Positions 2,020 to 35,602 of a stretch of 35,642 bases of DNA are shown here, in pieces. The stretch lies in the NCBI GenBank assembly GCA_021323375.2, contig JAJPCT020000008.1:1-35642 (forward strand), given 5' to 3'. The number at the start of each line of letters is the position of its first letter. The first letter of the stretch is position 1. This DNA is from Candidatus Wolframiiraptor gerlachensis (GTDB taxonomy: Archaea > Thermoproteota > Nitrososphaeria_A > Caldarchaeales > Wolframiiraptoraceae). The position numbers and the translations under genes are program-made. The notes under the pieces are model-generated. The model did not search any database. It worked only from the letters and a program-made list of their open reading frames with translations, and was not told where the DNA came from.

Positions 2020-4923
2020 CTCACTATCGTCTTTTCTCTAATCCTAATTATCATTTTTCTAACGAGTTTTCTTAATTCATCGGCGAAGAATACTGTGCTT
2101 GAGACGAGGAATATTGTGCACCAATCCCATATCGAGATTGGAGCGGTGCCTAAAGCAACTCTTAGCGGGGGCAATAGCGTAGCTGAAACCTGTAGAGTAA
2201 TAGAGGCTGCTATTGCTATGATTAGATATTTGTTGGTGAAGAATCCCAGCTCGAAGGCTGATTTTGTGCTTGACCTGCAGTTTATCGCATTAAATACTTG
2301 AAACATCGCCATTGTTGTGAATGCTAAGGTTTGTGCTCTAACGATGTCTCCATTATTCCATTCTTTTATGAACATGTATAGCGTTCCAATCATCATGAAT
2401 ATTGACACGTACATTATGCCGAACAGAACATCTAGGTTAATTATTTTCTCCTTGGGTTTTCTCGGAGGTTTATCCATCACATCTTCCTCTTTTGGCTCCA
2501 TGGCCAAGGGCACCACGAGAAGGCCATCTGTTACAAGGTTCACCCACAATATCTGAATAGGCTTGAAAAGTAATGGGAGCTGTGGGAAGAAAATTAACGC
2601 GGTCAATATTGTTAAGATTTCTCCCGCGTTTGTGGAGAGCAAGTATTTCACAACCTTCCTAATATTCTCGAATATTACACGGCCCTCTTCAACAGCGTTA
2701 ACGATACTTGCAAAATTGTCATCTGCGATAACCATATCTGCTGCTTCTTTCGCGACATCGGTGCCCGTAATGCCCATAGCTACACCTACTTCAGCTGCTT
2801 TCAGAGCTGGTGCATCATTTACACCATCACCAGTCACGGCTACAACATGTCCTTTACGTCTAAGAGATTCGACTATCCGATATTTATGAACTGGAGATGC
2901 TCGGGCAAAGACTGGGACATTCTCTATAATGGTATCTAATTCGTCATCATTCATATGATCCAGCTCCGTCCCAGTTAAAACTTTTGAACCCGGCTCCATG
3001 ATCCCAAGCTCTCTGGCAATAGCTTCTGCTGTTAACTTATGATCCCCCGTCGCCATGATAACTTTGATTCCAGCCTTTTTGCAAAGTTTTATCGCCTGCT
3101 TCGCCTCAGGTCTTGGTGGGTCGATCATTCCCGTAAGGCCTACAAAAACCAGTTTGGCGAGTTTTTGTTTGAGATGTTCTTTGAATGTTTCAAGATTGTC
3201 TGGCTCTATGATTTTATATGCCATGGCGAGTACTCTGAGCCCTTCACTGGCCATTTCTGCGCTAATTTTGAGAATCTCTTCCTTTTCTTTAGGAGACAGC
3301 TTTCTCGTCTCATCATCTAGTAGAATATGTGAACACATTTCCAGAATTGTTTCAGGTGCTCCTTTCACGTATACTCTTAAATTCCCATCGGGGGATTTAT
3401 GAAACGTGGCCATATATCGCTCCTTCGGATCAAATGGGATCTCATCTATGCGTGGCAACTGCGTCTCTAGCGTCTCTTTATTTAGGCCTGCTTTTTCTGC
3501 AGCAACCACCAGCGCGCCTTCTGTTGGATCTCCATATACCTCCCAGCGATATCCACCATTCACCTCATGCTGCCTGAGCCTAGCATCATTGCAGAGTGCG
3601 GCAATTTCAAGTAAGAGATGGAGAGCCTTATCCTCTTTAGGGTCTATCGTAACATCATCTACCATCATCTACTTTAAATGAGCCTTCTGGAGCAAAACCA
3701 ACACCGGTTACCTCGATCATTTTACCGTTTACGAATATTTTTCGAACCGTTTGTTGATTGGTTGTCAAGGTTCCCGTCTTATCTGTGACAATCGCTGTAA
3801 CTGATCCTAGAGTGTCTATTGCTGGTAGCTTCCGTATGATGGCGTTGCGTTTCGCCATTCTACTAACTCCAACGGCTAAGGTTATTGTCAAGACCGCGGG
3901 TAGTCCTTCTGGTATGGCTGAGACCATGATTGCTAATGTGAAGAGTAATGTCTCGTAAAACTCAAACCCACGGATAAAGACGCCAGTGAGCAACACAAAG
4001 CTGCCACCACCTAGCGCGAAAAGACCTAATTTCTTAGTCAGATCTTTCGCGCGTTTTTCATATGGAGTTTCAACTCTCTCAGCTTCCTTTATAAGTTTAG
4101 CGATCTTGCCCATTTCTGTTCTCATTCCTGTGGCAACAACAACAGCTTTACCTCTCCCTCGAGTTACCATTGTCCCTGCGAATGCCATGTTCTTCCTTTC
4201 TGCTACAGGTAGATCCTCATCAAGAGGTTCGACGATTTTCCTTACTGGAGTTGATTCACCAGTTAACATTGATTCATCAATTTCGAGATTTATCGCTTCA
4301 AAGATGCGGGCATCGGCTGGAACCTTATCGCCAGCTTCTAGGAGAATTATGTCTCCTGGGACTATTTCCCTTGCCTTGACACGCATTTCGATACATGTGC
4401 CTTTTTCGGGGCATGATCGAATGACCTCTGCCTCTGGAGCCGCCAATGACTTTAGAGCTTGAAGAGCGGCTTCAGCCTTGTACCCTTGAATAAATCCTAC
4501 AGTCGTGTTTATGGCTATTACAGCAATTATCACGATGACGTCGATTAATTTGCCGGCAAAATAGGCAATAAGTGCTGCCGCATAAAGCACAAATAGCAGA
4601 GGGCTCTTAAGCTGATCAAGCAGTAGAGCTAGCTTTCCTAACCCCCTTTCTTCCTCTAACTCGTTCGGCCCATACTCTTTCAACCTTTTCTCCGCTTCAT
4701 CAATCGTTAATCCACGTTCACTGGTTTTAAGGATCCTGAATACTTCTTCGATGGGTAGTGCATGCCAGCTAATTTCTTCCTGTCTCCCTTCCTTTGCCGA
4801 AGACAATTCCTTTTCTTTCAACATTTTGGTTTTTAAAAGCTTTTTTTGGATTCTCATTAGCGTCCCGGAATTCTGTTTTAGCATGTCTTCCGAGCCTTCC
4901 CGGCTTAGTTGCTTCTTAATCAT
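2016..4923 (-). CDS. P-type IIA (Ca2+/SERCA-like) cation-transporting ATPase, split by one frameshift near 3670
   Basis: TGES, AIPEGLP, DKTGTLT, KGAPE, TGD, GDGVNDAPALK, TM5 STNAGE and TM6 WVNLVTDG motifs spread across ORFs 3655..4923 and 2016..3668. Confidence 0.92.
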
Positions 4924-7709: not shown

Positions 7710-9095
7710 TTGACTATGAGGAGGTCTCTCGCCTACTTGGCGACGATCATCATTATCATGCTCTTCTCGCGTATCGCCGGCTTTAATCCCGCTCAATCCC
7801 TCTCCCTCACAGTCTTCCTCTCGATAATCGCCGGCGCGATAATGTTCTGGAGATTCAGGGTAGCCTTCGCCCTAGGAGGTGTGGCGATGCTCTTCGCGGC
7901 CGGCTTACTGGATCTCGAGCACTTCATGCAATATGCCAACCTCGATGTCGTGATTTTTCTGATATGCATGATGATAGTCATAGGCTTCTTAGAGGAGAGG
8001 AGGTTCTTCGAGGTTCTGGTGGATAGGTTGATGCGGTATTCGGGGAATAAGGCCCATATGACCATATTTCTGCTCATGGTTCTCTCGGCTCTGTTCGCGG
8101 CAATGGTTGACGAGGTCACATCCATACTCTTCATGATGGGCATAGCAATAAACATAGCCTCAAGGCTTGAGGTCCCGCTCATACCGCTAATGCTTATGAC
8201 CGTGTTCGCGACGAATATAGGCAGCAGCGCGACCGTGATCGGAAACCCCGTCGGGGTCATGATAGCCTTCGCATCAGGATATGGTTTCTTGGACTTCCTT
8301 AGGTGGTCAACGCCGCTAGCCATCCTAGCCCTGTTTGTGATCACGGGACTCATGATGATCTACTTCAAGCCATACCTAGATGAGGTTGACGAGAAGATGA
8401 GGAGAATGGTCCTGGCCGCGGAGCCGGATGGATCGGATGCTGTTTGCCGGAGGATCGACCCGATCGCCCTAGTCTTCTTCATCGGTGTTATAGGCGGCTT
8501 GATTTTTCACACTCAACTTGAGTATGTTCTTCATCTACCGAAGAACACCATGCTTTTGGGAGTGCCGATGATCGGCGCTGCTATCGCGCTCCTGATTGAG
8601 AATGTGAGGGCTAGGGAGATCGTGGAGAGAAGGGTTGACTGGTGGACTATACTCTTCTTCCTCCTATTCTTCACATCCGTCGGCACGCTAAAGTTTACGG
8701 GGGTGACCACTGTCCTCGCCCAATACATGATGCCTCTCGCGAGCCTCGATCCAATAATTTTCCTGCTCGTCGTCGGATATGTTGTTGGAATGCTCTCGGC
8801 ATTCATGGATAACATACTCGCGGTCGCGCTCTGGATAGCTATACTGCAGGAGATGGCGAGCCTCGGAGTCGATGTTGCGCCATTATGGTGGGCGGTCCTG
8901 CTCGGCTCAACCTACCTAGGCAACCTGACGATAATAGGCAGCACGGCTAACATCGTGGCTGTCGGGATGGTTGAGAAGCAGAGGCTCGGCCACATAACAC
9001 TAAAGGAGTGGATTAAAGCCGGCGCCCTCGCCTCCTTCCCACCACTAACACTCGGCCTGCTACTGCTCGCACTACAGATGCCATTAATGACTTGA
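7710..9095 (+). CDS. ArsB/NhaD/SLC13-type ion/anion permease
   Basis: Many TM segments; repeated motifs SALFAAMVDEVT / TNIGSSATVIGNP and SAFMDN / GNLTIIGSTAN. Confidence 0.85.
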   Translation: MTMRRSLAYLATIIIIMLFSRIAGFNPAQSLSLTVFLSIIAGAIMFWRFRVAFALGGVAMLFAAGLLDLEHFMQYANLDVVIFLICMMIVIGFLEERRFFEVLVDRLMRYSGNKAHMTIFLLMVLSALFAAMVDEVTSILFMMGIAINIASRLEVPLIPLMLMTVFATNIGSSATVIGNPVGVMIAFASGYGFLDFLRWSTPLAILALFVITGLMMIYFKPYLDEVDEKMRRMVLAAEPDGSDAVCRRIDPIALVFFIGVIGGLIFHTQLEYVLHLPKNTMLLGVPMIGAAIALLIENVRAREIVERRVDWWTILFFLLFFTSVGTLKFTGVTTVLAQYMMPLASLDPIIFLLVVGYVVGMLSAFMDNILAVALWIAILQEMASLGVDVAPLWWAVLLGSTYLGNLTIIGSTANIVAVGMVEKQRLGHITLKEWIKAGALASFPPLTLGLLLLALQMPLMT

Positions 9096-9189
9096 AAAAG
9101 GCGGAGATCATCGAGATCATCCGCTTGGCGCGAGCCCCTGATCGTGGAAAATACTCAAATAAGCTCTAGGTTGCTGGATTCTCGAGATA

Positions 9190-10416
9190 ATGTCTCTTGA
9201 GCCGGCCTTGACGGCGAGCTCCATGGATCCGGTTCTCAGGGCCATTGTCACGATTGGTGTTCTAGTCTTCTTCGCGAAGATTTTCGCGAGCATGTTCTCG
9301 AGCATCAGGCTTCCACCCGTCATCGGCGAGCTCTTGGCGGGAATTATTTTCAGCCCCTACGCCTTGGGAGGCGGGATAATAGTCTTCGGCGAGCCGATAG
9401 TCGTCTTAAATGATTACGTGGAGGCATTCGCCGAGATAGGCGCGATCATGCTCCTCTTCTCGATGGGGCTCGAGATGGGGTTAACGAGCTTGAGGGGGAC
9501 CGGCATGTGGGCGGTACTCGTCGCCACGCTAGGGGCGGTGATCCCCTTCATCGCCGGATACGAGTTCTATACCCTGTGCGGGCTACCCCAGACATCAGCC
9601 CTCTTCATAGGCGCGATAATGGTTGCCACGAGCCTGGCAATAAGCTCCAAGGTGCTAGAGAACCTTAATCTCCTAGCAACCGAGGAGGGAATGCTTCTAG
9701 TTAATGCCGCCGTGATAGATGACGTGCTAGGGATAGCCATCCTCACGATCATAACAGCGGTAATCGTCCATGGCACCATAAGCCCCTATGAAGCTGCCAA
9801 GATCGTGGTCGCCTTCTTCTCTATCTGGTTCGCGATGGTGGGGTTCGGCGCATACTTCCTGCCGAGGATTATGGAGAGGGCCATGTCTCTTGGGGTTGAG
9901 GGCGCCGTCGAGGCCGCTGCCGTGGCCTCAGCATTCATCCTCGCGGCCATCGCTGGAGGGCTGGGATTATCCCCGATAATCGGGGCTTATGCCGCGGGGA
10001 TGGCCATAGCCGAGTCGAGGGCGCTCCAGCATGTAAAGGACTTCACGCGGCACGTAAACACCGTCTTTAGCCCGATATTCTTCACGGTTGTCGGAGCCCG
10101 GATGAACTTGGGGATAATCACGGATCAGATTATCATCGGGATACTGGTAATGGCTGCCCTAGCCATTGTGAGCAAGTTTACTGGAGGGTTTGCCGGCGCG
10201 ATGCTGAGGCTTAGAAGCTGGCTGAAGAGCGCCCGAGTCGGCGTGGGAATGATCCCGAGGGGAGAGCTTGGGCTCATAATAGCCAGCCTTGCCCTCAACA
10301 AGGGCGTAATAGGCCAGGACCTCTATGCCCAGGCCGTCTGGATGGTGGCCCTAACCTCGATAATCGCCCCAATCATACTCTCGAGAATGTATCGCGTGGA
10401 GGCTGGGGAAGGCTAG
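9190..10416 (+). CDS. CPA2-family cation:proton antiporter (KefB/NapA-like)
   Basis: PPVIGELLAG, ATSLAIS, AAVIDD and GMIPRGE motifs. Confidence 0.9.
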   Translation: MSLEPALTASSMDPVLRAIVTIGVLVFFAKIFASMFSSIRLPPVIGELLAGIIFSPYALGGGIIVFGEPIVVLNDYVEAFAEIGAIMLLFSMGLEMGLTSLRGTGMWAVLVATLGAVIPFIAGYEFYTLCGLPQTSALFIGAIMVATSLAISSKVLENLNLLATEEGMLLVNAAVIDDVLGIAILTIITAVIVHGTISPYEAAKIVVAFFSIWFAMVGFGAYFLPRIMERAMSLGVEGAVEAAAVASAFILAAIAGGLGLSPIIGAYAAGMAIAESRALQHVKDFTRHVNTVFSPIFFTVVGARMNLGIITDQIIIGILVMAALAIVSKFTGGFAGAMLRLRSWLKSARVGVGMIPRGELGLIIASLALNKGVIGQDLYAQAVWMVALTSIIAPIILSRMYRVEAGEG

Positions 10417-15156: not shown

Positions 15157-15426
15157 ATGGTAATGATTAGAATGCTAACTAGGTGGGAGCGGAAAGTCCT
15201 GCTCGATAAGCTACATGGCCTAGAAGTTAATCCAGATCATCTAAGAGTTGTTAAACACAGAGTCAAGAAAAGGCTTATAGAGGCATTTAGGGACATGCAA
15301 CTGATCTATGCTGTCTTTCCCGATCTTCAGAATGTTATAGGTGTAGCAGGCATCAGGGTGGTGCGGGGGGTGGGATTTGAACCCACGAACCCCTACGGGA
15401 CAGGAGCCTCAGTCCTGCGCCTTTGA
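15157..15426 (+). CDS. Small basic protein reading into the antisense of tRNA-Leu; probable relic integrase N-fragment, int(N)
   Basis: MLTRWERKVL...RVVKHRVKKRLIEAF aligns with the ORF at 34146 that runs into attR of the integrated element. Confidence 0.6.
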   Translation: MVMIRMLTRWERKVLLDKLHGLEVNPDHLRVVKHRVKKRLIEAFRDMQLIYAVFPDLQNVIGVAGIRVVRGVGFEPTNPYGTGASVLRL

Positions 15427-15446
15427 CCAGGCTTGGCTACCCCCGC
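15359..15446 (-). tRNA. tRNA-Leu(GAG), long variable arm, CCA encoded
   Basis: Reverse complement: GCGGGGG...CAGGA CT GAG GC TCCTG...GTGGG TTCAAAT CCCAC CCCCCGC A CCA. Confidence 0.95.
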
Positions 15447-22788: not shown

Positions 22789-23451
22789 ATGAGCAGCCAG
22801 CTAAGGATTGATGTCTTGAGGGAGGCGAGGCTCGACCTAAAATTCCTCCTAGAGAGAGGGTATAGGAAGCAAACGGTGCTCAAGCTCGAAGGGGAAAAGG
22901 AACAGCTTAGCAGGGCAGAGAGATCACTCCTCTTCCGGTCAGTTATGCCGGAGAGCGAGGCCGAGATCATAAGATCTAAGATCATTGGGCCTGAGCAGCT
23001 GGTGGGGAGGGAGGATTCTCGTGGATGGATTCAACGTGCTGAATACCGTTGAGGCGATGCTGAGAGGAGAGCCCCTGATACTATGCGATGACGAAGTGCT
23101 GAGAGATATTAGGGAAAAAGCATTCAAAATATAGGCCATCAAATCTGTCAGAGAACGCTCTTAAAAATGATACTAGAGTTCCTGAAGAACGCTCATGTCG
23201 CCGAGGTTAAGGTGTTATATGAGTCCCAGATTAGCAGGAGTGGAGAGGTTGCTGGCTTGACTTAGACACCTCTTATCAGAGATGGGCTTAAGGGGTGATG
23301 CTAGGACCGCGAAAACCGTGGACTCTATACTGGCGAAGTCGGGCGAGATAATAGCAACAAGCGACTCGGCAATACTCCTAAGATGTAGGGCGTCCATAGA
23401 TATACCGAAAACTTGGCGCAAGCCGTGGGAGCGAGGATTATCAGGCTTTGA
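22789..23451 (+). CDS. DUF434-family (PIN-like) protein, frameshifted
   Basis: EARLDLKFLLERGY, then ILVDGFNVL..VEAML.G..LILCDD.VLRD and IATSDS in shifted frames. Confidence 0.72.
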
Positions 23452-23469
23452 TGGGGCGCGTAATCACCC

Positions 23470-24201
23470 CTATCTTATCATGCTCATGATCCTTCTCAGG
23501 ACCTTAGAATGCTTCTCCTCATCACTCTTGATGAACTCGACAAGCAGTGGTGCTGAAGCCTTCCGGGTAGGAGCTTCTCAACCTCCCCTAGGCCTCCCTA
23601 TATGCGCCTCCTCCTCCTTCCTAAGAAGCGACTCAATATCCATCTTCTTAAGCTGGCAGCTTATATCGACGGCCCCACCCCTCTCTATCGCCGAGATAAG
23701 GGTCATCAGGATGTCTGCATGCCCTCAGGCAGTCGCTTGCAAGAGCCCTGGAAGATCATCCGAGCAAGATCATCCTTCAGGTTTATAGCAGCTCTCATGA
23801 ACTCCTCAGCAGACTCCTGCTCGGCCTGAACCCTTCTCCTCAAGAACTCGAGTATTCTCGCAACCTCACCACTCACCTCGCTGGGGACGACCTTAACCCC
23901 TCACTCACCTCAGAGAGATCTCCTGATATTGAAGGCCGCATCATAGAGCTCGCCCTCAGTCAACATTCCCTAGACAGGATCTTCTCCAACGAGCTCGTCG
24001 AGATAGCGCCTCGCCGCCTCATTCTCCATAATCCTCCTCGCGGATGATGAAGCCCTCCTCCTACTCAGGTAAAGCGTTATCGTCGGCTGACTCATCCCCC
24101 AAAACCTCAGCCACCCTCTTCCTAAGCTAAAGCCATGATCCTTCACAAGCCCTCATCGCGAGAATAGCCCTAATACCTGAGACAATCTCCTCCATCCTCA
24201 T
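23470..24201 (-). CDS. Transcriptional regulator: N-terminal HTH fused to a ferritin/rubrerythrin-like four-helix domain (frameshifted; not in ORF track)
   Basis: Manual reconstruction: IRAILA.RLVKDHG...RVAEVLGMSQPTITLYLS (HTH), then QAEQESAEEF...ASDCLRHADIL...RKEEEAH...KSDEEKHSKVL. GGAGGAG RBS before the ATG at 24201. Confidence 0.68.
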
Positions 24202-24255
24202 TAACGACTCCTCCGGGCAAATGACTTAGCGCGTGAAAATAGCACCGTAAAGCAC

Positions 24256-24282
24256 ATGATTTTTACATCATAGAATTTAAAT
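24256..24282 (+). promoter_or_regulatory. Candidate operator ATGAT-N6-ATCAT next to a TATA box (ATTTAAAT) upstream of feoA
   Basis: Inverted repeat at 24256-24271 in the divergent intergenic region; TATA-like box at 24275-24282. Confidence 0.4.
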
Positions 24283-24328
24283 CAGGGTTCCTGGAAAACC
24301 TTCATGGATCGAGGGGCGATGAGCCTCT

Positions 24329-24640
24329 ATGAGGGTTCCATTAACCTCGCTTAGTGAGGCTTCGGGAGGCAGTGGTTGTGGAGATAACATTTGGAGGCCA
24401 TCCCCCAGCACGGGGTTCTGGGGAGGGTTTAGGCGTAGGCTTGGATGGGGCTGGAGAGGTAGAGGCGGCCCTGGATGCAGCGCGGTTAAGAGGCTTGCAG
24501 ACCTCGGCATACTACCCGGAGCCAAGATCAAGGTCGTTAGAAAGGCTCCACTCTAGCGGCCCCATAGAGGTTGGAGGTACATGGCTCGAGATCCATGATT
24601 GGAAGGGGCTTGGGCCTCGAAGATAATAGTGGAGACCTAG
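24329..24640 (+). CDS. feoA: FeoA ferrous iron transport protein with Gly/Arg/Trp-rich insertion (frameshifted)
   Basis: KRLADLGILPGAKIKVVRKAPL, then GPIEV..GS..IGRGL..KIIVE in shifted frames; directly upstream of feoB. Confidence 0.85.
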
Positions 24641-24671
24641 TCTAGCGAGATCCCCTTTGGAGGGCTCTCCA

Positions 24672-26656
24672 ATGAAGTATGCGAGTATCCCAGCTCGTGG
24701 GATCAGAGGCGGCCACGCCGAGCCGGATCTCAGGATAGCCTTAGCTGGTCAGGCGAACGTGGGCAAGAGCGTGATTTTTAATCAACTGACAGGACTTCAT
24801 CAGCATATAGCAAACTGGCCCGGGACCACAGTGGATAAGGCGGAGGGAACGCTATATTACAAAGGCCTGATAATGAAGGTTATTGATCTTCCAGGAATAT
24901 ATTCCGCTGACACATCTCTCAATAGAGAGAAGATCTCTAGTGAACTATATCGCGAGGAGAGGCTGGATGTTTGTGGTTAACGTGGTCGATGCAACAGCGC
25001 TTGAGAGACACTTGATCTTCACTCTCCAGCTTCTCGAGCTTGAGAGGCCGCCCATCCTAGTATTGAAACATGATGGATCTAGCGGAGAAGTATGGCATCG
25101 AGATAGATGTGGATGTGCTTAGGAGGAGCTCAGGGTGCCGGTCGTCATGACGATTGCGACGCGCGGGAGGAGTGTGTACCCAGATACTCGATGCCGCTAT
25201 GAGAGCTCCATAGAACCGGATACTCCCAAGAAGATCCGATATGGCAAGGAGGTTGAGGAGAGGGTTGAGAGGCTGGAGGCCGCTCTGGGGGAGATTGACC
25301 CACCATATCCGAGGAGATGGATCGCCCTAAAGCTTCTGGAGAAGGATGAGGAGATATGGGGCCTCGTTGGGGAGAAGAATCCACGGGTTATAGAGCTGGC
25401 CAGCGAGCTGATCACCGAGCTCGAGAGCATCCATGGACACGACTCATTAATCATAATCGCGAATGAGAGAGCTTGCATCGCGAGCCAGATCGCTAGGAGA
25501 TGCATAAGGATAGTGAAGCCCAGAAAACCAACTCTAGGAGATAGATTCGATGAAATCGCAACACATCCGATACTAGAGTTACATTCTCTGCCGCCATAAT
25601 ATTCGCCGGCCTCTTCTCAATAGTCTTCGGGGTCGGCGGAATAATCGCAGAACTCTCCGAGGAATATTTGTCGGAAATCATGCGCGATGCATGGGTTCGT
25701 ATCCTCGGGAATCAACCCGATATCCGAGGTCGGCTGGTCAGCCATCGAGAGCATCTTATTCCTCCTCGGCCTAGCCATACCATACATCCTCCTCTACTTC
25801 CTCACACATTCCTCTTGGAGAACTGGGGATACCTTGCGAGAGTATCATTTCTAATGGATTCTCCAATGCATAAGGTGCAGGCGTCCATGGCAGGCCGTAA
25901 TCCCCATGCTCCTAGGATTCGGCTGCAACGTCCCAGCATGCCTCGCGGCAAGAATCATGGATACATGGAGGGAGAGGATCATAACGATCTTAATGACGAC
26001 GCTCGTGCCATGCTCCGCCGTAACCGTTGTCGTTATGGGGCTAGTGGGAAGATATTTTGGAGTGTCATGGGTCATTGGGCTCTATCTCCTCACACTCCTC
26101 ATCGCCTTCATCCCTAGGCTCCATCGCCTCAAGAATCCTCCCAGGAGTACCACGTTGAGCTGATAATGGAGATGCCGAGCTACAAGGTGCCAAGCATCAA
26201 GACGATACTAACGATGACTTGGATCAGGCTGCGAGAATACCTTGAGATAGCAGCCCCACTCATAATCGCCATAGGAGCACTCGTAAAAGTCCTAGAAATC
26301 TCCGGCCTGTTAGGACTCTGATATCAAGCACCCTAAGCCCGATAACCTCCAGCTGGCTCGGATTACCAAAGGAAACTGGGTGTCCTACTAATCTTTGGAA
26401 TCCTGAGAAAGGAGCTCATACTAACAACGCTCGCGGCACTCCTCGGGACCATAGACTTCTCACAAGCACTCACGCCAAACCAGATGATAACACTCTCCAT
26501 AGTAACAATACTATACATACCATGCGCCACAATCTCCGTCCTACTCAAAGAAACCGGAACAAAACAACCCTAGTAATCACACTAGCGGAAATAAGCCTAG
26601 CAATACTCATCGGCGGAATAGCCTCAAAACTCCTCCTAACTATAGGAATAAGTTAG
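24672..26656 (+). CDS. feoB: FeoB ferrous iron transporter (many frameshifts)
   Basis: G1 GQANVGKS, NWPGTTV, DLPG, NVVDA; membrane motifs LGFGCNVPA, VPCSA, IMEMP.Y, GILRKEL and LYIPC. Confidence 0.92.
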
Positions 26657-27232
26657 GCTTGCAAAGAAAGCGCACATACCCTAAAAAGAGCCTAATCAGC
26701 CCGCATGACTATATTAGCCTGAGAACCCTTAGAACATTCTAAAAAGAAGAAATTGAAAAATAAGTGAGATTTTTCAAGATGTTAAATGATCGGCTCCGCA
26801 TATGATATTAGGTGTAAAATCTATGAAGTGCTTCGGGATTTGGATCTGATTTCATGGCCAGGCTTTGCTAAGAATTATGATTAACATTGTATCATGTTTG
26901 CGTATATTTCCTTTCTTGTTATGCACCTTGATCGCGTATTTTCGTGATAAAGATTTTACAGACCTCTTTCGAAAAGGTTCACCTTAATGTATGATGTGTG
27001 TAGTTGAGTATTTAATTGGGATGGACATTTGGAATGAGGTTTATTATTTATCACCATAAGTTAGCTGTCCTCATATCATACTGGCAAACTTTCTCAGCAG
27101 ATTAGGAAAAAAGCAGGATGATATAATACACGTTATCCTTCATAAGAATCAGAATGCCAGATTGCCCTAAAAAGCCTCTAAGAATTATATGTGCCAAAAT
27201 AGGCATAAGATGTTCCTCAGAGGTGAAGACCT

Positions 27233-27652
27233 TTAATCTTGTATTGTTATGATCTCGATTCCCATGATGTCTTTGATTACGTCGGTTTTCTTAGCTATGT
27301 CTTTGTCAAGGGTGGCTATGGACTTCGCTCCAATCGCCTTGGCTATAGTAATGTGTAGTAGATCAAGTGTTTTAAGCCTGAGCATGGGAACATGTTTTAG
27401 GCTTTCCTTCACAATAATGTTAAGATCTGTTTCAACTATCGAGGCGCCAAATCTCTTGATAGAGTACATAGCTAGTGGTATTGGTTTCTCCAATTCAGCT
27501 CTTGCTGTAAATGGATGCTAATTCAAGTAGTGTGAGCTGGCTTACAACTCTCCTCTCCATCCAATTGCATAGACATAGCTACCACTTTATCATGATTAGG
27601 GTCCTTTTCATCAACATACGATATGATGACATTTTGTGTCAATATATATCAT
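27233..27652 (-). CDS. vapC: VapC PIN-domain toxin (frameshifted)
   Basis: Reconstruction MIYIDT(N)VIISY..EKDPNH...VSQLTLLELAS...LKTLDLLHI..A...IATLDKDI. Confidence 0.85.
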
Positions 27653-27904
27653 CAATGTCTCTCCTCTTCCAGCATCTTACTCAGTCTACCGTGAGCGATC
27701 CTGAAGCCCGACTTCTCGAGCTCCTCAACATCCCTATACACCTGCTCCTAGAACCCCACTTCCCTCACAACCTCATTCTCAAGCCCTCTTTTCAATGAGA
27801 ATATTGAATGCATGAGACCTGCTTCTAGCAAGCCCATACCTAACCATCTTATCGGCTAGTTCAACAACCTCCTACGAACCTTTAATAGATACCGTAGTGC
27901 TCAT
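27652..27904 (-). CDS. vapB: VapB-type RHH antitoxin (frameshifted; not in ORF track)
   Basis: MSTTVSIKV..EVVELADKMVRYGLARSRSHAFNILIEK...LEEERH*; its stop overlaps the vapC start (TGATG). Confidence 0.75.
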
Positions 27905-27925
27905 TTACCATACATACTTAGTAGT

Positions 27926-27949
27926 TACCATGGTATATAAAGATATACC
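27926..27949 (-). promoter_or_regulatory. vapBC promoter with overlapping palindromes (candidate autoregulatory operator)
   Basis: TACCATGGTA (27926-27935) and GGTATAT-aaag-ATATACC (27932-27949) overlap a minus-strand TTTATATA box about 30 nt upstream of the vapB ATG. Confidence 0.55.
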
Positions 27950-28799
27950 TTAATAGTTTGTGGTATCAAGATGCAGCGATTACATGTTGCCTACAAGCCT
28001 CCTTTTACTATTAGGAACATAGCGTCTTTTATCCAAATTTGAAGGTTTGGAGGCTCCTAAGCTCCGGGAGTTTATAAGTAAGTGAAGAAAAATATCGCCT
28101 TTGGTTTTCTTTTATGTCACAGGGATCTAAAATTTTGTCGCACGAGTTAGCAATGAGTGAGAGGTTTGGGCTTTCGTGAAAAAGTTATGGGCTCTCCTTG
28201 TACCCATGTTCATGGCCGTGGATTCTGCCATCGTGAATAATCCGAAGATGCTCATAGAGACTCTTTTTATAGGAGGCTTCATCCTAGAGTTTAGGAGCCT
28301 GAATAACAGCCCCAATGCATATGTCTCACAATCCTGGAAAGACTTGGGCTATCCGTAGCCCTCTGTAGACTCCCGCTTCGGTAATTTCGGAAACCCGACC
28401 CCAGAAAGTAGAGTAAAAGTGTATTTTCCTTTAAAACTTCTTTATAAGCTTCGATATGGAAGCCGACAAATCAGAAAAATGATGTTAAAAATTAATTCTG
28501 ATTCGAGATGGAGAACCTTTGAGAGAAACAAGGGGTTGCCTGAAGATGGCTCGGTGGCTTTGCATGGCAAGAGATCGCTGAAAAGAACCAAAAGAACAAT
28601 ATGTTATCTCCTCGAGCTGGGCCTATCCCCCTCGCTGTAGGCTATAATGTTAGCAGGATTGCCAGCAGATGAGCAGGATTGCTGGAGAGGGGCCATATTA
28701 ATCATGCTCGAAAACAAAACTTGCAGAACATTTTATACATGTGGATCTGTTTTACTAACAGGCTGTTGCTCACGTTTAGTAAAGATTATATAGGGGTTG

Positions 28800-29641
28800 A
28801 TGGGTTTTGTTCGGACTTATCCCTTCATACCGGATTTAGGGCTGGTCTCCTAGTTTTCGATATTTGTCGTAATCAGGGCCGTTTCTTCCTTCTACTATCT
28901 TTACTACATGCAACCTCAGTTTACTACCTCCACCTCCTCTACCAGCATTCTGCTCACCGATCCGTCTAGGATTTATCTAGAGGTTGAGATCTCAAGTGTA
29001 GATGGTGTCAAGGGGTTTAGTGTTATCGCGGTGATCAATGTGGAGAATGTGGATTTCCTGCTTTTTAGGCCTATTGATGTATGGACCGATGATCTATCAG
29101 CTATTGGCTTGAGTGGCAGGATGCTGCTGGTGTCGAGTAACAATAACTATACGATTGATATGCCATGCATCATGAGGCTTAACGTCTCTTGTCCTCTGAT
29201 AACAGCGGATTATTCCTGGCTATGACATGCCGCCTCAGAATTGAGTCTGGAAGATATCTGAGTATCAATAGAGCTCTCTTGGAGCGAGGCTAAGGGTCGT
29301 GGCGGATTTACCTATCACTCTTTCCAAAGCTGAGGGACTCCACAAGATCCTACGCATTGATCGTCGATAAGACTAAAGCCTCTACGGGCCGGTCAGGCTA
29401 CTACGAGTCCACCGCGCATATATATGGATCTTTGAGGCCGCTGGAGAGGAGTATAGAAAGTTCAGGCTTGAGTCGACATCGCTGGAGACCGAGGAAGATG
29501 ATGGCGGTTCTTGAGGTGCCGGTCAAGAAGCAAGGTTCATACTATCAAGCACTAGTAATAATGAAGGCTAAGCCTGAAGAATATCTGTTAAGAATCACGA
29601 ACTCGATGAGCCTCAAGATAGAGCTAAGAGTGGAAGAATAG
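28800..29641 (+). CDS. Probable single frameshifted membrane-anchored/exported hypothetical protein
   Basis: Hydrophobic segment near 28840-28905, Ser/Thr-rich linker, and co-directional ORF pieces 28908..29225 and 29357..29641. Confidence 0.4.
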
Positions 29642-29968
29642 TCTTTAACAAAATCCGGCAGGGAAATAATCTAATACGGAATCATGTTTTCCCCATCACG
29701 ATTAGGCCTTTTTCAGCTCCCTCAGCCTCCAGCCTCCCTGACCATATTATTGATTCAAGCCTGAATCGCGAGGGTTAACTGCCTAACATCACATCGCAGT
29801 AGATCATCAATTGCCGAGACCAAGCTCCATCCACATAAAATCAAGCATCTTAACAATCGAATAATGCTGCCGCCTCCTAACAACCACCGGATTAACCTTA
29901 AAATACTGTCTCAAACAATCCTCAAACTGATTGGGGTCGGGGACCTCCCCCACTTGAGCAACGATTTT

Positions 29969-30041
29969 GGGCCCGTAGCTCAGCTTGGATAGAGCATCGG
30001 CCTTCTAAGCCGGGGGTCGGGGTTCAAGTCCCCCGGGCCCG
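29969..30041 (+). tRNA. tRNA-Arg(TCT); its 3' half is attL of the integrated element
   Basis: GGGCCCG TA GCTC...GAGC A TCGGC CT TCT AA GCCGG...TTCAAGT...CGGGCCC G. The T-stem appears one pair short, likely from homopolymer error. Confidence 0.92.
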
Positions 30042-30042
30042 C
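30002..30042 (+). repeat. attL core (anticodon loop to 3' end of tRNA-Arg)
   Basis: CTTCTAAGCCGGGGGTCGGGGTTCAAGTCCCCCGGGCCCGC, near-identical to 34321-34361. Confidence 0.9.
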
Positions 30043-30908
30043 TATTTCAAACGGAATAAGCCCTTCACGGCCTGTTAAGAATTCCTTTACGCTGCCCGTT
30101 AAAGGATTTTAACAGGGTTTTAGAGGATTTCCTCCAATATCTCCTGAAAACCTACTCAAGGAAATACGCTGTAGAAATCTATTCTTATGCCCGGAAATAT
30201 GGATATCAAGTCCTTTTTGAGAAGAATCTCCAACATTTTTACCGGCTGAATGATTTTCAACGGCTTGACGCAATGAAGGCCATGAGTCTGCTCTCAAGGT
30301 TTCTAGGCCGCTATGATGATTGGAAAAAATTACGTGAGAGACATGGGCTGAGGTGGGCCACAAATGATAATTTCATCCCATTGTTCAGCCTCCCGCCTTT
30401 TCCTAAGCTTTTAGAGGATGCTAAAAGCATGATAAACGCTTTGGTGGGGAGGTTTCTACATGAGGTGGAGTTTATGGCCCTGAGCGGGCTAAGGCCGCGG
30501 AGGCCATAATGGCAATTTAAGGTCTCTGCAAGATGCATAGAGAAGATTACTTTAACACTGAGCTAAAGGTTTTGGAGCATTTCCGCTTTCCACAGGTTTT
30601 CTTCAGAAGGTGTAAGCGGGCCTTCATCACGGTCCTTAATGATCATCTTTTAATGGCTCTTTGAAAGGCCGCGCCCATCACCTATAACATGCTGAGAATG
30701 TATCTTAGGCGGAGAGGCATGCGCCCATGCTTCAACGTCTTCAGAAAACTCTTTGCAACCTTTCTCTGCGGCAAAGGGTTAGAGGCGGAGCTGGTGGATT
30801 ACCCGCAGGGCTCGCGTCCCAAACACGGTCTTCATGCGCCACTATTTTTCACCTGACGTCAGGCCAGGTGCAGTGGAAAAGTCCGCGCCCTTTACCGGAG
30901 CTGCGTGA
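30043..30908 (+). CDS. Tyrosine integrase C-terminal fragment int(C), frameshifted
   Basis: Pieces MALSGLRP (catalytic R), LEHFRFPQVFFRRCKRAFI (K), FRKLFATFL (R), VDYPQG and VFMRHYF (Y nucleophile); begins directly at the tRNA 3' end. Confidence 0.82.
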
Positions 30909-30912
30909 GTTA

Positions 30913-32757
30913 TTATTCAATGGGTTTATGCCACTCCACGCGCTCAAGCTCATTATCCTCCCGCCAGCCACCGTCTGCAGAACAAACTGGTAGAGGCCGC
31001 GCCTAAGCCTTTTTCACCTTCCCCTATGTCCCTGTAAAAACTGGCAGCGCCTGGTGGATCTCCCTTGATCGTATAGGGTGAGGTCTCATAGACCTCTTTT
31101 AGGGCGTAAAGACTCCCTCAGGCTTCTGCAGAGCCACAGTCTCACTGTAGCGGCAGACGGCTGCCAGCCTCGTCCCTAGCCGAGCTCCGCGCCCTTCTGT
31201 AAAGGCTTGAAGCCGCCTTTATCAAGCTCCAATAGATAGGAGTCAAGCCACATTAACCCTGTTCTTGACTATGCGCAGCTGGTAAAAGTCCTGAATCCGC
31301 TCTAACAAAAACACCGTCAGCTATACCTGTGATAGCGCTGCTGCCGCGTATTTCCATCCAAAATATTCGCGTGTAAAAGGCTGCGCCTTTCTCAAGCGAT
31401 GAATAAGTATAATTGTTACATTATGTTTCATGCATATGGCCTTCAGCCTCCGCATTAGCTGGTAAACCCGGATATTATCATTTTCCGCCGTGAATTTGTA
31501 TCACTGCACTCAGGTTATCAATGATGACTAAGCCTCGTGGCTATACTCCGTTATGGCCCTCTCAAGCGCGGCCACTGCCCTTTACTTTCAAGGCTCAAGC
31601 CGCCGCCCAAGAAAAAGAGGCCATCACCTGGAATATCATCCGTTATCAACTCCATCCTCTGCTTTAGCAGTTGATAAGTGAGTTCTCAAAATCAATGAGT
31701 AAAACGTTTGTTTTGGCGGCGTTAAATGCGTCAAAGATCCTCTCACCTTTTACAATCTTCTAGAGAGAGGTCAAGGCGCCATGAAGCTTTTACCTCTCCC
31801 GGGCGCCCTGCTAGAATGATCAACGAGCCGCGCGGCAAAAAGCGGCTCAGAAATATAATCAATGGCACTCCACTTCCCTTACCACGTCTGAAAATTTTTG
31901 ATGCTCAAAGTTTCCGTGGATTCTCCTCTTTCTCACTGGAGAGAAGCCCCACCTTTGACAGAAAGTTTTTCAGTGAATAAGCCTTTCCGTCATGAAAATC
32001 ATAGAAATATCCTTTGTCTTTTGCGGAGATAAAAGATGGATGCTTATCCGCTGGGCATGAAAAGGGCAGTGATAAAGCGCGTAGCGGTGTGCTATCATAA
32101 GCCAGCCTGTCCCGTGAAAAAGTCTTGAGCCATCTCCAAGTAATGCTTGAGCCTATCTCCATTCCATCATCTACCGTCGCGCCTTTTTCATTAGTGTTAT
32201 GTTTTAGCTCAAGAATTAACTCCCGCCTCATGTAAAAGCGCGTGAACATGTTATTAGCGTCATCAATGATGCGGATGCTGTTATCATTTAGCTTGAGATA
32301 GCCCTCAGACGGGTGCATTATGACAAATTTGTTAAAGAGTAGCTCAATCTTACTTCCATCCTCTAATTCCACGGAGAATCTCTCCGGCTCCTTTACGCTG
32401 TAATAATAGGCGTGTAGGCCGCCGCGCGGCGTCCTTTCCAATTTTGTGATGGGCAGATGCTTCAGTAATGGCCTCCATCTCTCCTCCGGCATGTCAAAAT
32501 CAACGCAGGAAAGATAAAGGCCATCAAGCGTTTTTTGTAGAAAGACGCCCAGGGCGTTAGCGCCCTCCCAGTTTAAGTCCTCCAGCTCCTCCCGGCCCTG
32601 GCCATTTCTGAGCCATTTTTCCAGCGCCCCGGACTTCATTAGTGGCCGTTTTCTCCATTTTTCGTCATTCCTCCAGACGTGTAGGGGGCCGCAATCAGGC
32701 CTTTCTCATGCCAGGCCAGGGCCGCCCGCAAAGTTTATTAGCTAAAGGGCCCCACAC
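30913..32757 (-). CDS. Replication protein: bifunctional primase-polymerase + zinc-finger-like module + RecA-type (AAA_25/RepA-like) helicase, frameshifted
   Basis: LSCVDFD and TPRGGLHAYY (prim-pol); DKHPSF..YFYDFHDGK (CHC2-like); LPRGSLIILAGRPGE(G)KS Walker A, VLLIDFEN, ENDN, NVTIILIHRLRK and LRIVKNR. Confidence 0.75.
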
Positions 32758-33410
32758 TACTCTCCGCGCGCCGCTGGAGGTGGGAGGGGTCTTCCACGCC
32801 TATTCCTCACCTCCATGATCCCTCTTCCCAGCCATCCGGCCTCTTTAGCATGACCAGCCGTGTAAAAGAAAACACTTTGAGGCCGTCTCCCTCCGCGCCC
32901 CTCTTCCCACTCAAGCAATAGCGCCTTCTCATTGCAAACCACATGATCCACATTTTGGGCAGACAAACCTGTTACAGGCGGTGCAGTAATCTGCATTCTT
33001 TATTTCAAACTCACAACCACAAAGCCAACAGCGGTACGCATATTCATACCTACAATGCATGCATTTCAAACCTTCCACTAAATGTATTTTTGAACGCTTT
33101 TCCACACCTGTAACATTTCAGTGTAATGTATCTGACCCCATCTTGGTTTTATGAAATGCTCAAAGTCATTTGAAAAACATAAAATACTTATGTTAAAGGT
33201 GTCCGCTATCTTCTGCAGTTTTTCAACGTCATTCTTTTCAGATAATTAAAAAATTTAACAAAATAGATTTTGTCATCCTTCAAGCAGACAAAATCAAAGG
33301 CATCATCAATTATTTTAAGGGGAGTGGAAGCTGCGCTGCCTTAGCCTCTCCTCCGCCAAAACATGCATGAGATTTTGCGGGTTAATTGTTTGACTGCGCC
33401 TCATTTCCAT
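32757..33410 (-). CDS. Hypothetical protein: restriction-endonuclease-like N-domain plus five CxxC zinc-ribbon motifs (frameshifted)
   Basis: AFDFVCLKDDKIYFVK, then KCYRCG, KCMHC, RCWLCG, YCTAC and VCPKCGSCG; GGGTG RBS before the ATG at 33410. Confidence 0.55.
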
Positions 33411-33640
33411 CACCCACCCTGAAGATAATCACTCTATCCGCTAGAATCTTCTGCCTGACGCTCTGTCCTTTTTCAAACATATTTTTAGGTAGAGACACAG
33501 ACTAGGCTTCTGCCCAGCTGAATAACTTTCACCAGCCTAATGTTTTGATGCCTCATCAGGAAAAGCGTGGAAACTGATATATATATTTGCTTAACTTCAA
33601 AGACACCTGAAAATGCAAAATTCATTCAAACATTTTTTAT
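33383..33640 (-). CDS. AbrB/SpoVT/MazE-like small DNA-binding protein (frameshifted; start uncertain)
   Basis: IRLVKVIQLGRSL..VSLPKNMFEKGQSVRQKILADRVII resembles the AbrB-type KV..G.S..VSLPK motif. Confidence 0.5.
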
Positions 33641-33752
33641 CTTCAACCGCCGCCTCTCATGGAGGGTAAAGGGAGCGCGCCCCCGCTTTGAGGAGAGACC
33701 CTGGGGGCCTTTAAATATTGGATATCCTCCACCATGCTGAGCTATTATTTAA

Positions 33753-33770
33753 CTTTTTCCATGGAAAAAG
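33753..33770. promoter_or_regulatory. Perfect 18-bp palindrome (operator/origin candidate)
   Basis: CTTTTTCCATGGAAAAAG equals its own reverse complement. Confidence 0.6.
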
Positions 33771-33839
33771 GCGGTATTACTACTTACTCTATATAGATTC
33801 ATTTTCAGGGAAAAGTTTAAATAGCGCGGAACAAACTGG

Positions 33840-33920
33840 AAAAACCAGGGAAAGGCTCCTTTTGCCTTGAAAAGCCCGGAGCAGGCTCCTTTTGGCTAAA
33901 AGAACCTTTTCCTGGTTTTT
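33840..33920. repeat. 27-bp imperfect inverted repeat with internal direct repeat AGGCTCCTTTTG
   Basis: Arms 33840-33866 and 33894-33920 match at 23/27; AGGCTCCTTTTG occurs at 33853 and 33883. Confidence 0.75.
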
Positions 33921-34145
33921 GGAAAACGGAAGAAAATATTAAACCACTATTTAAATGTTGCGCAAATTTTAAATAGGTAATACTGCTACTTTTAACAGTT
34001 TGTATATTATATGTAAAAGTGCTGGTACATACCAATGCTAGTAATACGCGCATTGATGTACATTTTTGTACATTGTAAAGGGGCATGTCCCACCCTTTTT
34101 ACGTTTTGGGGAGAAACTTTTTACGGGCGCGGCCCATTATCATAT

Positions 34146-34361
34146 ATGCTGTCAAAGCGAGAGAAGGAATTTTGGAGAATCCAGCGGCTTTTTCCAGGGA
34201 GGAGGCCCGGGTCTACCGGGCATAGGATAAAGAAGAAACTGAGAGAAGCCTTAGGGAGCTTGAGCTCTCAATGACTTGATAATCTCCGGCGCTTTTCCGG
34301 TAAAACATGCGGTGGGAAATCTTCTAAGCCGGGGGTCGGGGGTTCAAGTCCCCAGGCCCGC
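34146..34361 (+). CDS. Putative integrase N-terminal fragment int(N) reading toward/into attR (frameshifted)
   Basis: Reconstruction MLSKREKEF(L)ENPAAFSREEARVYRHRIKKKLREALG; co-oriented with int(C) and abutting attR. Confidence 0.6.
34321..34361 (+). repeat. attR (duplicated 3' half of tRNA-Arg)
   Basis: CTTCTAAGCCGGGGGTCGGGGGTTCAAGTCCCCAGGCCCGC, with no D-arm or 5' acceptor strand upstream. Confidence 0.9.
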
Positions 34362-34453
34362 ATCTATAGATGAAGTATCTATAAATGAAGTATCTATTTA
34401 TCGCTAGCGCTAGTAGAGAATTGTCGTGATGAACGTGATCATTACAGCAGTTG

Positions 34454-35602
34454 TTATGGTTGTTGGCGCGAGTATTTTGTGGTGACTTTCCGGAGACTTG
34501 CTTTATAATATTCTGTTGAGAGTATTAGGCATGCATGAGCCGGGCTCAGTAGAGCTCCTGTAAAGCCTCCGGTGAACGCTAGCAGGAGCGCCCTATTACT
34601 TTCCTTTAAAAGGGGTGCTAGGGGCGGGAACGCTAGAGCGACGAAGGTGAATTCGACGCCAGTCCCAACAACTATTAGAAAGGGTATTGCGAATGCCGCG
34701 AGATCCAATAGAGAAGAGAGCCTGGTTAATAGATTATAGGCGACGCCGCTCTCCTCTATGAACGTGCTATAGATAAATGAGAAGACTATTATCGTTATAA
34801 AAGTCGGGTTCAGGGAGCTTTTTAGAGACTTAGCCATAGTCTTTATTGAGGGCTTGTAAATGGCTATCGCCATCAAAATCACTATTATTAGTGAGATCAC
34901 CAAGTCCATGCGAAGAATGATCGTTGTGATAGCTATTAGGAGAAATGGCCAGATATGCAGTAACCCGCTCACTCTCCCTCTCTCATTGAAAACTCTCCCA
35001 TCAATTGCTCTCCGGATGATGAGCATTCCAATAATGGCGCCGATGATTGTTGCGGTGAGCATTATCGGAAGATTCATTGTCGAGATTCTTCCAATAGAGA
35101 TCCCAAGTAGGCCGGATGCGAGGATCACACCTTGGTAAAGTGGCCAAGTTGTTATCCAGATTTGCCTGAACCAGTAGTTTATGAAGCCCTTCTGCTCCGC
35201 GTTTAGGCGTAGTTTCTCATAGAGATCGTTCAGGATCACTGCTGATACATACGCTCCTCCCGGCATGGGTAGTAGTCCTATGAGCGCTGGTGTTGCTAAA
35301 GCGGCAAAGCTCGTGCTGAAAAAGGATAATCCCTCTACAAGCTTCTGGGAGTAGCCCGTCATGCTATACAACTCGGCTAGGAACATCGCGAGTATCAAGG
35401 CTAGAAGTGTTCGAATCATGCTCATGTTGAATGCTCGTGGGAGGATTTGAATGAGGTTCGAGCCGAATGCTAGAAGGCCGAAGAGGAGGCTGCCTACAGC
35501 AAGCGCGGCCGCAACATTAACCCCCCTAAAAGTAAGTACCAGGACTATAATTGTGGAGATTATGAGAGCGGCCGTCAAGTCGATGCTGTACATTACCTTC
35601 AC
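34454..35602 (-). CDS. DUF401-family multi-pass membrane protein (C-terminus likely frameshifted)
   Basis: PALIGLLPMPGGA..SA, INYWFRQIW...WPLY and LLSPAHACL..S.EYY motifs. Confidence 0.8.
   Translation of the reverse strand: MKVMYSIDLTAALIISTIIVLVLTFRGVNVAAALAVGSLLFGLLAFGSNLIQILPRAFNMSMIRTLLALILAMFLAELYSMTGYSQKLVEGLSFFSTSFAALATPALIGLLPMPGGAYVSAVILNDLYEKLRLNAEQKGFINYWFRQIWITTWPLYQGVILASGLLGISIGRISTMNLPIMLTATIIGAIIGMLIIRRAIDGRVFNERGRVSGLLHIWPFLLIAITTIILRMDLVISLIIVILMAIAIYKPSIKTMAKSLKSSLNPTFITIIVFSFIYSTFIEESGVAYNLLTRLSSLLDLAAFAIPFLIVVGTGVEFTFVALAFPPLAPLLKESNRALLLAFTGGFTGALLSPAHACLILSTEYYKASLRKVTTKYSRQQP

Follow-up and report, generated by a model that had tools for sequence, protein, structure and literature searches.

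Site-specific integration by SSV-type, or "suicidal," integrases has been reviewed for the Sulfolobales, Thermococcales, Archaeoglobales, and Methanosarcinales, with attachment (att) sites of 40-50 bp and integrases of the Pfam family PF16795 (Badel et al. 2021, PMC8371274; here and below, statements on this review concern the portion of its text that was available). The elements treated there include the pTN3, pT26-2, and SSV families, which are plasmids and viruses of 13-38 kb, and pSSVi of Sulfolobus/Saccharolobus solfataricus, a small plasmid-like, nonconjugative element with a suicidal SSV-type integrase that resides as an integrated copy with few episomes. Krupovic et al. 2019 (PMC6563490, likewise in the portion available) further describe cryptic integrated elements of thaumarchaea, among which NitEve-E3 has a split SSV1-like integrase and CalSub-E1 carries primpol genes. 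The subject herein is an insert of 4.3 kb near the end of a 35,642-nt stretch of DNA, called the window throughout, which is the whole of contig C8 (JAJPCT020000008.1) in a metagenome-assembled genome (MAG; G000) of Candidatus Wolframiiraptor gerlachensis that comprises 1.28 Mb in 27 contigs and is 89% complete. We read this insert, with a probability of roughly 0.8, as a cryptic integrative plasmid of ~4.3 kb that was inserted site-specifically in the 3' part of a tRNA-Arg(TCT) gene by an SSV-type integrase.

With the pTN3, pT26-2, and SSV families (PMC8371274), the element shares an attP inside the integrase gene (int), an att of 40-50 bp within a tRNA gene, and borders formed by int(N) and int(C), and its relatives also have the Phage_integr_3 domain, but it belongs to a family of 4-kb elements from Nitrososphaerota-type hosts. 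The thaumarchaeal elements resemble it in combining an integrase with a replication protein of the kind found in mobile genetic elements (MGEs), in their tRNA targets, in their related hosts, and in their lack of viral or conjugative hallmarks. However, their primpols are fused or linked to superfamily-3 helicases, whereas the helicase of the window's replication protein (Rep) is of the AAA_25 type, and an SSV-type integrase together with a PrimPol-AAA_25 protein on a 4-kb element is not among the combinations described in the available portion of that paper (PMC6563490). pSSVi, to which the element is likened by description and not by sequence, likewise lacks capsid and conjugation genes but comes from another host phylum, while the family of the window element is smaller (4.1-4.5 kb) and has a Rep that joins PrimPol, CHC2, and a RecA-type helicase. 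Reportedly, pSSVi measures ~5.7 kb and targets a tRNA-Arg gene.

The insert is bracketed by two copies of a 41-nt direct repeat, which starts 2 nt ahead of the anticodon and ends with the 3' end of the tRNA (Table 1). This agrees with a preliminary description of the DNA, made from the letters alone, which had placed repeats of ~41 bp between the anticodon loop and the 3' end of tRNA-Arg(TCT). The repeat is of the size known for such att sites (~40-50 bp of a tRNA gene), and the window contains just two occurrences of its first 21 nt (0.00 expected; 0/100 shuffles). Homopolymer lengths (G4/G5, C5/C4) and a single base are all that separate the two copies; on contig C9 of the same MAG, this tRNA has G5/C6, which gives a proper 5-bp T stem. 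The empty tRNA-Arg site that had been proposed as a check was found in G002, a genome of the same genus, where the order is leucyl-tRNA synthetase (LeuRS), two small genes, FeoB, tRNA-Arg(TCT) (8212-8288), and, directly beside it, the DUF401 gene (8559-9749), whose product is 84% identical in amino acids to that of the window. Because the window has the same gene set with an extra 4.3 kb between the tRNA and DUF401, G002 represents the empty site. No other copy of the element was found in its own genome. Across 40 related genomes, the matches listed were just the tRNA, DUF401, and one rep stretch in G021, with none that was spacer-like, and a simple k-mer search found no CRISPR array in the MAG.

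Table 1. Coordinates of the element, its borders, and its flank in the window (contig C8), with the breaks seen in the window copy of each gene.
Feature	Position	Strand	Basis	Breaks in window copy
tRNA-Arg(TCT), reconstituted at attL; target (attB)	29969..30042	+	ARAGORN; Rfam RF00005, 59.5 bits	
attL, 41-nt direct repeat from anticodon loop to tRNA 3' end	30002..30042	+	Repeat search	
int(C), predicted catalytic part of SSV-type (PF16795) tyrosine integrase, reading out of att	30035..30918	+	Frameshift-aware alignment to L016 and L018 integrases	4 frameshifts, 2 in-frame stops
rep, predicted PrimPol (archaeo-eukaryotic primase, AEP) + CHC2 (DnaG-type) zinc finger + RecA-type AAA_25/DnaB_C helicase, ~605 codons	30969..32784	-	Homology, model	17-18 frameshifts, 2 stops
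Gene of ~220-aa protein with C-terminal Cys-rich zinc ribbon	32892..33377	-	Alignment to 226-aa (L017) and 213-aa (L019) proteins	5 frameshifts
Small AbrB/MazE-like gene (weakly supported label), ~50 aa, first of the abrB-zn-rep operon	33406..33538 (aligned extent only)	-	Weak matches	1 frameshift
Divergent control region between abrB operon and int; candidate promoter/origin	33539..34084	.	Repeats, palindromes, motifs	
int(N), N-terminal integrase part, reading into attR; possible start 34035 or 34085	34085..34361	+	Alignment to L018 int(N)	2-3 frameshifts
attR, second copy of 41-nt repeat	34321..34361	+	Repeat search	
Host DUF401 membrane protein gene, flanking the insertion	34454..35602	-	Adjoins tRNA in G002	

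The preliminary description had further recognized the catalytic part of a tyrosine recombinase directly after attL and a small open reading frame (ORF) running into attR, and had proposed that integration splits int around an internal attP; the first two are confirmed here, and the third is supported. Fragments after attL are colinear with the integrases of two related metagenome loci, L016 and L018, and, once the frames are followed, they show the motifs SGLRP, CKRAFITV, FRKLFATF, and RVPNTVFMRHY at the aligned catalytic positions; R169, K209, R252, and Y285 are invariant in an alignment of 17 integrase sequences. At the other border, a frame open from 34264 continues into and through attR and aligns with the int(N) of L018; int(N) gave no Pfam or PHROG match. 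The integrases of L016, L018, and G021 (a genome of the same family and a different genus) are 45-54% identical to that of the window, and their int(C) parts match PF16795 at 43.4, 36.3, and 28.7 bits, respectively, where the cut-off is 27. When circularized in silico, both of the intact complete relatives yield one continuous int frame across att (407 aa in L018 and 365 aa in G021), which supports the assignment of the element's integrase to the SSV ("suicidal," type I) kind, with attP within the int frame. The single ORF that had been expected of the circularized window was recovered in part. Specifically, int(N), att, and int(C) are colinear with the L018 integrase in a frameshift-tolerant alignment and the homologous frame stays open across the rebuilt junction, although 6-7 frameshifts must be bridged in the remainder of the gene.

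Among 83 database homologues of the integrase, 81 carry PF16795; in several, a peptide derived from tRNA sequence lies close to the N-terminus, some reach full length (374-399 aa), and the source names of their hosts are Aigarchaeota/Calditenuaceae, Bathyarchaeia, and Nitrososphaerota. The nearest integrase is 50-54% identical to that of the window, and the database relatives found overall are about 30-54% identical. Three of the relatives of 374-399 aa (P0218, P0221, and P0223) have an N-terminal Cys-rich, zinc-ribbon-like segment before the tRNA-derived peptide and are presumably uninterrupted, episomal forms of the integrase.

Rep is represented by the single long intact ORF within the element (31905-32639, 244 aa), a search with which returned five proteins (609-618 aa; E values from 1e-57 to 1e-64), of which four lie on contigs of 3.9-5.6 kb. 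The window rep aligns over 602 residues to intact Reps, running from 32784 to 30969, with 53% identity to P0002. In these relatives, the C-terminal half matches AAA_25 (E 4e-26 and 2.5e-30), DnaB_C, and KaiC, which together denote a RecA fold, and a superfamily-3 helicase was not found there. The signal for a CHC2 zinc finger is weak, and Pfam matches nothing in the first ~220 residues; Pfam Prim-Pol (PF09250) matched neither the window Rep ORF nor P0002 nor P0005. The N-terminal part was nevertheless connected to primases by several routes. An exhaustive phmmer search with it returned 176 proteins at E <= 1e-3, eight of them at E <= 1e-30, and Pfam Prim-Pol is present in 12 of 20 sampled distant homologues. 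A profile search reached the zinc-binding domain of Aquifex DnaG (E 0.003) and pRN1 ORF904 (E 0.008). For an AlphaFold2 model of residues 1-300 of the L018 Rep (predicted local distance difference test, pLDDT, 88), the best Foldseek match was the prim-pol domain of pRN1 ORF904 (1rni; E 9e-6; TM score 0.62 on target), with the phage NrS-1 primpol (E 1.7e-5) and the DnaG zinc-binding domain also retrieved. D98, D100, and H127 are conserved in Rep, giving the DxD/His signature alongside the AEP fold, and the window ORF (31908-32639 in this comparison), which is 46% identical to this L018 segment, shows VDFD and GGLHAYY.

The likeness to pRN1 ORF904 lies in the N-terminal prim-pol fold and its fusion to a helicase in one polypeptide, but identity is 16%, and the Rep of the window's family adds a DnaG-type CHC2 finger and has a RecA-fold AAA_25/DnaB_C helicase, not one of superfamily 3. 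The same domain order is found in phage primase-helicases: Rep relatives match phrog_239 (E 7e-26), and in the best ESM Atlas clusters AAA_25 occurs in 97-100% of members and Prim-Pol in 82-96%, with Zn_ribbon_DnaG in 49% of one cluster, such that, per ESM Atlas, Prim-Pol with AAA_25 (and CHC2) is a common phage primase-helicase architecture. Those proteins are mostly from tailed bacteriophages, whereas the AEP domain of the window's family has diverged beyond the reach of Pfam Prim-Pol. The available portion of Kazlauskas et al. 2018 (PMC5862659) notes AEPs that are joined to helicases of the RepA/DnaB kind.

Two further groups of Rep-like proteins were encountered. Contig C14 of G073, from another genus of the host family, encodes a 590-aa Rep cousin (L064; 5428-7200, minus strand) with a canonical Pfam Prim-Pol (55 bits) and AAA_25/DnaB_C; no tRNA or integrase was seen within its 7.8 kb, and a contig end is nearby. 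About 23 hot-spring metagenome contigs (L020-L042) encode proteins that share just the PrimPol and CHC2 part, at 27-35% identity to Rep, and these are other element types using the same primase module.

Complete relatives show the same arrangement at other tRNA genes. The L018 metagenome locus, 4313 bp, is integrated in tRNA-Ala(TGC) between perfect repeats of 47 nt, spaced by 4130 bp, and contains int(C), a zinc-ribbon protein, Rep, an AbrB-like gene, iterons, and int(N). Contig C2 of G021 holds a complete copy with perfect 61-nt repeats 4504 bp apart in the 5' half of tRNA-Leu(GAG), and in L016 a 310-aa int(C) frame reads directly out of a tRNA-Ala beside archaeal host genes. The position of the zinc-ribbon gene varies, being downstream of rep in L018 and G021 and upstream of it in the window, L017, and L019. 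Within the host's order, Rep is present in 3 of 76 genomes, this MAG included; genome contigs were scanned first with the Rep ORF of the window, which gave 37 pattern matches, and next with the Rep alignment, which gave 105, and no relative was confirmed in either scan.

The element and its relatives probably form a new, small, and apparently unnamed family of a known kind. A limited literature search found no description of this 4-kb element family, and on that search its undescribed status is plausible; a 2025 preprint gives a catalogue of hundreds of Nitrososphaeria MGEs that may list such elements, and the words "primase" and "plasmid" are absent from the available part of its text. More tentatively, and at somewhat less than even odds in our estimate, these could be minimal autonomous integrative plasmids (4.1-4.5 kb, 4-5 genes) of an undescribed family in hot-spring Aigarchaeota-like Nitrososphaerota, the smallest known replicons with a suicidal integrase. 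Under this broader proposal, members would have been retargeted by swapping the tRNA-derived segment of int (the 3' part of Arg-TCT, the 3' part of Ala-TGC, and the 5' half of Leu-GAG), and they would have been recently active, given that the window copy is polymorphic in a natural population. If the broader proposal is true, such an element would offer an integrative vector backbone, ready for use, in a lineage that lacks genetic tools. On the reading favored here, suicidal integration extends to plasmids of very small size in a hot-spring archaeal lineage that is uncultivated, and the three complete natural examples (Arg, Ala, and Leu tRNAs) illustrate how an integrase family shifts its target via the att segment in its own gene. 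A 4-kb element that replicates and integrates itself could also be turned into a vector backbone.

Of the integrative plasmid as first pictured, minimal at ~4.3 kb and equipped with int, rep, a zinc-ribbon protein, and an AbrB-like regulator, the int, the rep, and the size stand and the remainder needs amending. The zinc ribbon is present, but the 58-aa ORF at 32929-33105 is the C-terminal tail of a ~220-aa protein; the zinc-ribbon Pfam matches of this protein family are sub-threshold, and its N-terminal domain, which may hold a nuclease-like motif, has no Pfam or PHROG match. The AbrB/MazE-like label of the first gene in the operon is weakly supported, with matches to MazE_antitoxin (PF04014) at E 0.039 and 0.12 (under the cut-off), to VapB1 at E 0.11 in a profile search against the PDB, and, for an AlphaFold2 model with pLDDT 78, to VapB/MazE as the top Foldseek matches (E 0.2-1.6, TM score ~0.4). 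Between this operon and int lies a region whose repeats and motifs are candidate promoters, operators, or origin. It holds three TTTAAATAG (TATA-like) motifs at 33816-33976, the sole ones in the window (0.36 expected; at least three in 0/100 shuffles), whose core we take to be an archaeal TATA-like box. A 30-nt repeat, tandem/inverted, occupies 33836-33920, and palindromes form a pair at 34011-34078. The control region of L018 has four 33-nt repeats with the same core, that of G021 has two TATTTAAAC repeats, and beside the int start each of the three elements carries a pair of imperfect palindromes at a distance of 42-45 nt.

Taken together with known SSV-type integration, these parts suggest how the plasmid might operate. 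With attP inside the int frame, integration would place int(C) beside attL, where the tRNA is rebuilt, and would leave int(N) at the far border, running into attR, whereas the circular form would express full-length Int and be replicated by its own Rep. In Rep, the AEP PrimPol would prime DNA de novo, in concert with the CHC2 zinc finger and the RepA/DnaB-like RecA-fold helicase, probably starting in the repeat-rich region between int and the abrB-zn-rep operon, for which the AbrB/MazE-like and zinc-ribbon proteins are likely regulators or origin-binding factors. Excision of an integrated copy would need Int supplied by an episomal or related copy.

The genes of the window copy are broken about once per 100 nt by frameshifts (Table 1), and one explanation is that the element is a decayed fossil, that is, an old integration whose genes are truly frameshift- and stop-ridden pseudogenes. 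This would account for the ~30 frameshifts and six in-frame stops across int, rep, the zinc-ribbon gene, and abrB, and for the nonidentical att copies, all in a MAG of which the remainder is well assembled (most contigs lie 86-94% in open frames of >=120 aa, with 26-34 kb of C8 as one of just four low regions). We consider it improbable nonetheless. The last 12.7 kb of C8 is a second, error-rich version of a locus that is clean on C9, where positions 22380-15298 repeat window positions 22907-30042 at 97% identity, with 95 indels (82 of 1 nt; 63 in homopolymer context) and 102 mismatches over 7.1 kb; an indel-to-substitution ratio of ~1:1 with homopolymer bias is unlike natural decay. Host genes of the same tail, FeoB included, show the same indel density of ~1% when compared with the intact C9 proteins (17 frameshifts in FeoB, 10 in o243, seven in a 223-aa protein, three in PIN, and one in RHH), and yet FeoB is identical between C8 and C9 at 636 of 664 residues (96%). 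C9 likewise has intact homologues of the G002 genes that are broken on C8. Further, the element is free of large deletions, with homology kept end to end, and short-read contigs hold frame-restoring variants. Specifically, in Logan contigs from two hot-spring metagenome runs, where the element has a depth of about 3-7, both runs agree against the window at many indels of 1-2 nt (83 places, besides 75 substitutions). Among the 12 of these 83 places listed, nine lie inside the element, and five of the nine sit at predicted frameshifts and are of the sign needed to put the frame right (+C after 30494, -1 at 33098, -1 at 33135, +C after 33232, and -1 at 33326), the first of them turning "GLRPRRP*" into the recombinase box "GLRPAEA." Because the host genes share the density, the C9 copies are intact, and the contigs of both runs carry frame-restoring indels, we read the breaks as errors. 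Most likely, the C8 consensus from ~22.9 to 34.4 kb has poor support and represents a minority variant of the population, and the extra breaks are assembly errors. Given that a contig tail can hold ~1% indel errors in a clean genome, seemingly pseudogenized elements in such tails should not be read as fossils.

Two other alternatives concern the life of the element and not its decay. It could be a free circular plasmid that the assembler threaded into the chromosome path through an attP equal to the tRNA 3' half, which fits with short-read contigs that break at both att borders and with an element depth well below that of the flank at 34366-34500 (34.5 in run X1); parts of the window that run X2 does not cover are uninformative. 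Yet the errors in the tail look like those of a consensus built from few long reads, which would be expected to span a 41-nt repeat; the relatives in L018, L016, and G021 are integrated with host flanks on one contig; and the genes at both borders are arranged just as in an integrated SSV-type element, which together make a free plasmid very improbable. Alternatively, the element may replicate and integrate by itself but be packaged as a satellite by a co-resident helper virus, as pSSVi and pSSVx are with fuselloviruses. The small size of the family, the precedent of pSSVi (PMC8371274), and the lack of capsid, packaging, and conjugation genes would suit such a lifestyle, and nine proteins of L016-L019 and P0002 matched just replication and integrase families in PHROG. 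However, a plain cryptic plasmid would lack transfer genes just as a satellite would, no helper, virus-derived gene, or packaging signal was identified, and a scan of viral contigs with the Rep alignment confirmed no relative among 335 pattern matches. We consider a satellite unlikely.

Several points also weigh against the integrative plasmid that we favor. The two metagenome runs may be the assembly's own samples, in which case their contigs check the consensus without independence from the assembly, and an intact int or rep in this very copy is a prediction, with 12 of the 83 indel places listed for polishing. The int gene of the window is frameshift-broken, and its best single fragment scores 15.3 bits (E 0.019) against PF16795, under the cut-off of 27. 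The functions of Rep, Int, and the origin are all predicted by homology, including the catalysis of integration and excision at att by Int. Neither the circular junction (attP) nor the exact empty site of this population was seen in any read or contig. Finally, since the tail of C8 duplicates the C9 locus, the MAG holds two haplotypes of the tRNA-Arg locus, and on C9 (L014, 12372-15280) the tRNA leads, without DUF401, into a 3.1-kb cassette that encodes two D-2-hydroxyacid dehydrogenases along with a KDPG/KHG aldolase, beyond which lie homologues of the G002 genes that lie past DUF401. With this cassette in place of DUF401, the tRNA-Arg flank is a strain-variable spot, and the better-polished allele is therefore not a simple empty site.

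The source names of the nearest LeuRS relatives (Thaumarchaeota/Nitrososphaerota at 80%; Aigarchaeota-type MAGs at 53-61%), along with those of the integrase homologues, would place the host in the Nitrososphaerota, among lineages of the Aigarchaeota/Caldarchaeales kind. A joint of positions 29995 and 34322 (7 letters between, 25-nt sides, depth 246/364) was considered as an excision product and rejected, as it belongs to the tRNA-Arg of another, commoner organism. The 3.3 kb between FeoB and the tRNA, a stretch absent in G002, is occupied by the 223-aa hypothetical protein and a VapBC-like pair at window 27236-27904 (intact at L014 17423-18087), which consists of an 82-aa partner and a PIN-domain protein (PF01850, E 3e-16); C16 146267-146564, which matches window 27308-27607 at 82%, is probably a PIN paralogue. 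Where C8 is otherwise clean, a P-type (Ca-type) ATPase gene (2016-4923, minus strand) is split into overlapping ORFs of 550 and 422 aa around 3655-3668, which reflects either another consensus error or a real frameshift. The window also carries an unoccupied tRNA-Leu(GAG) (15359-15446, minus strand), whose anticodon matches that of the tRNA taken by the G021 element.

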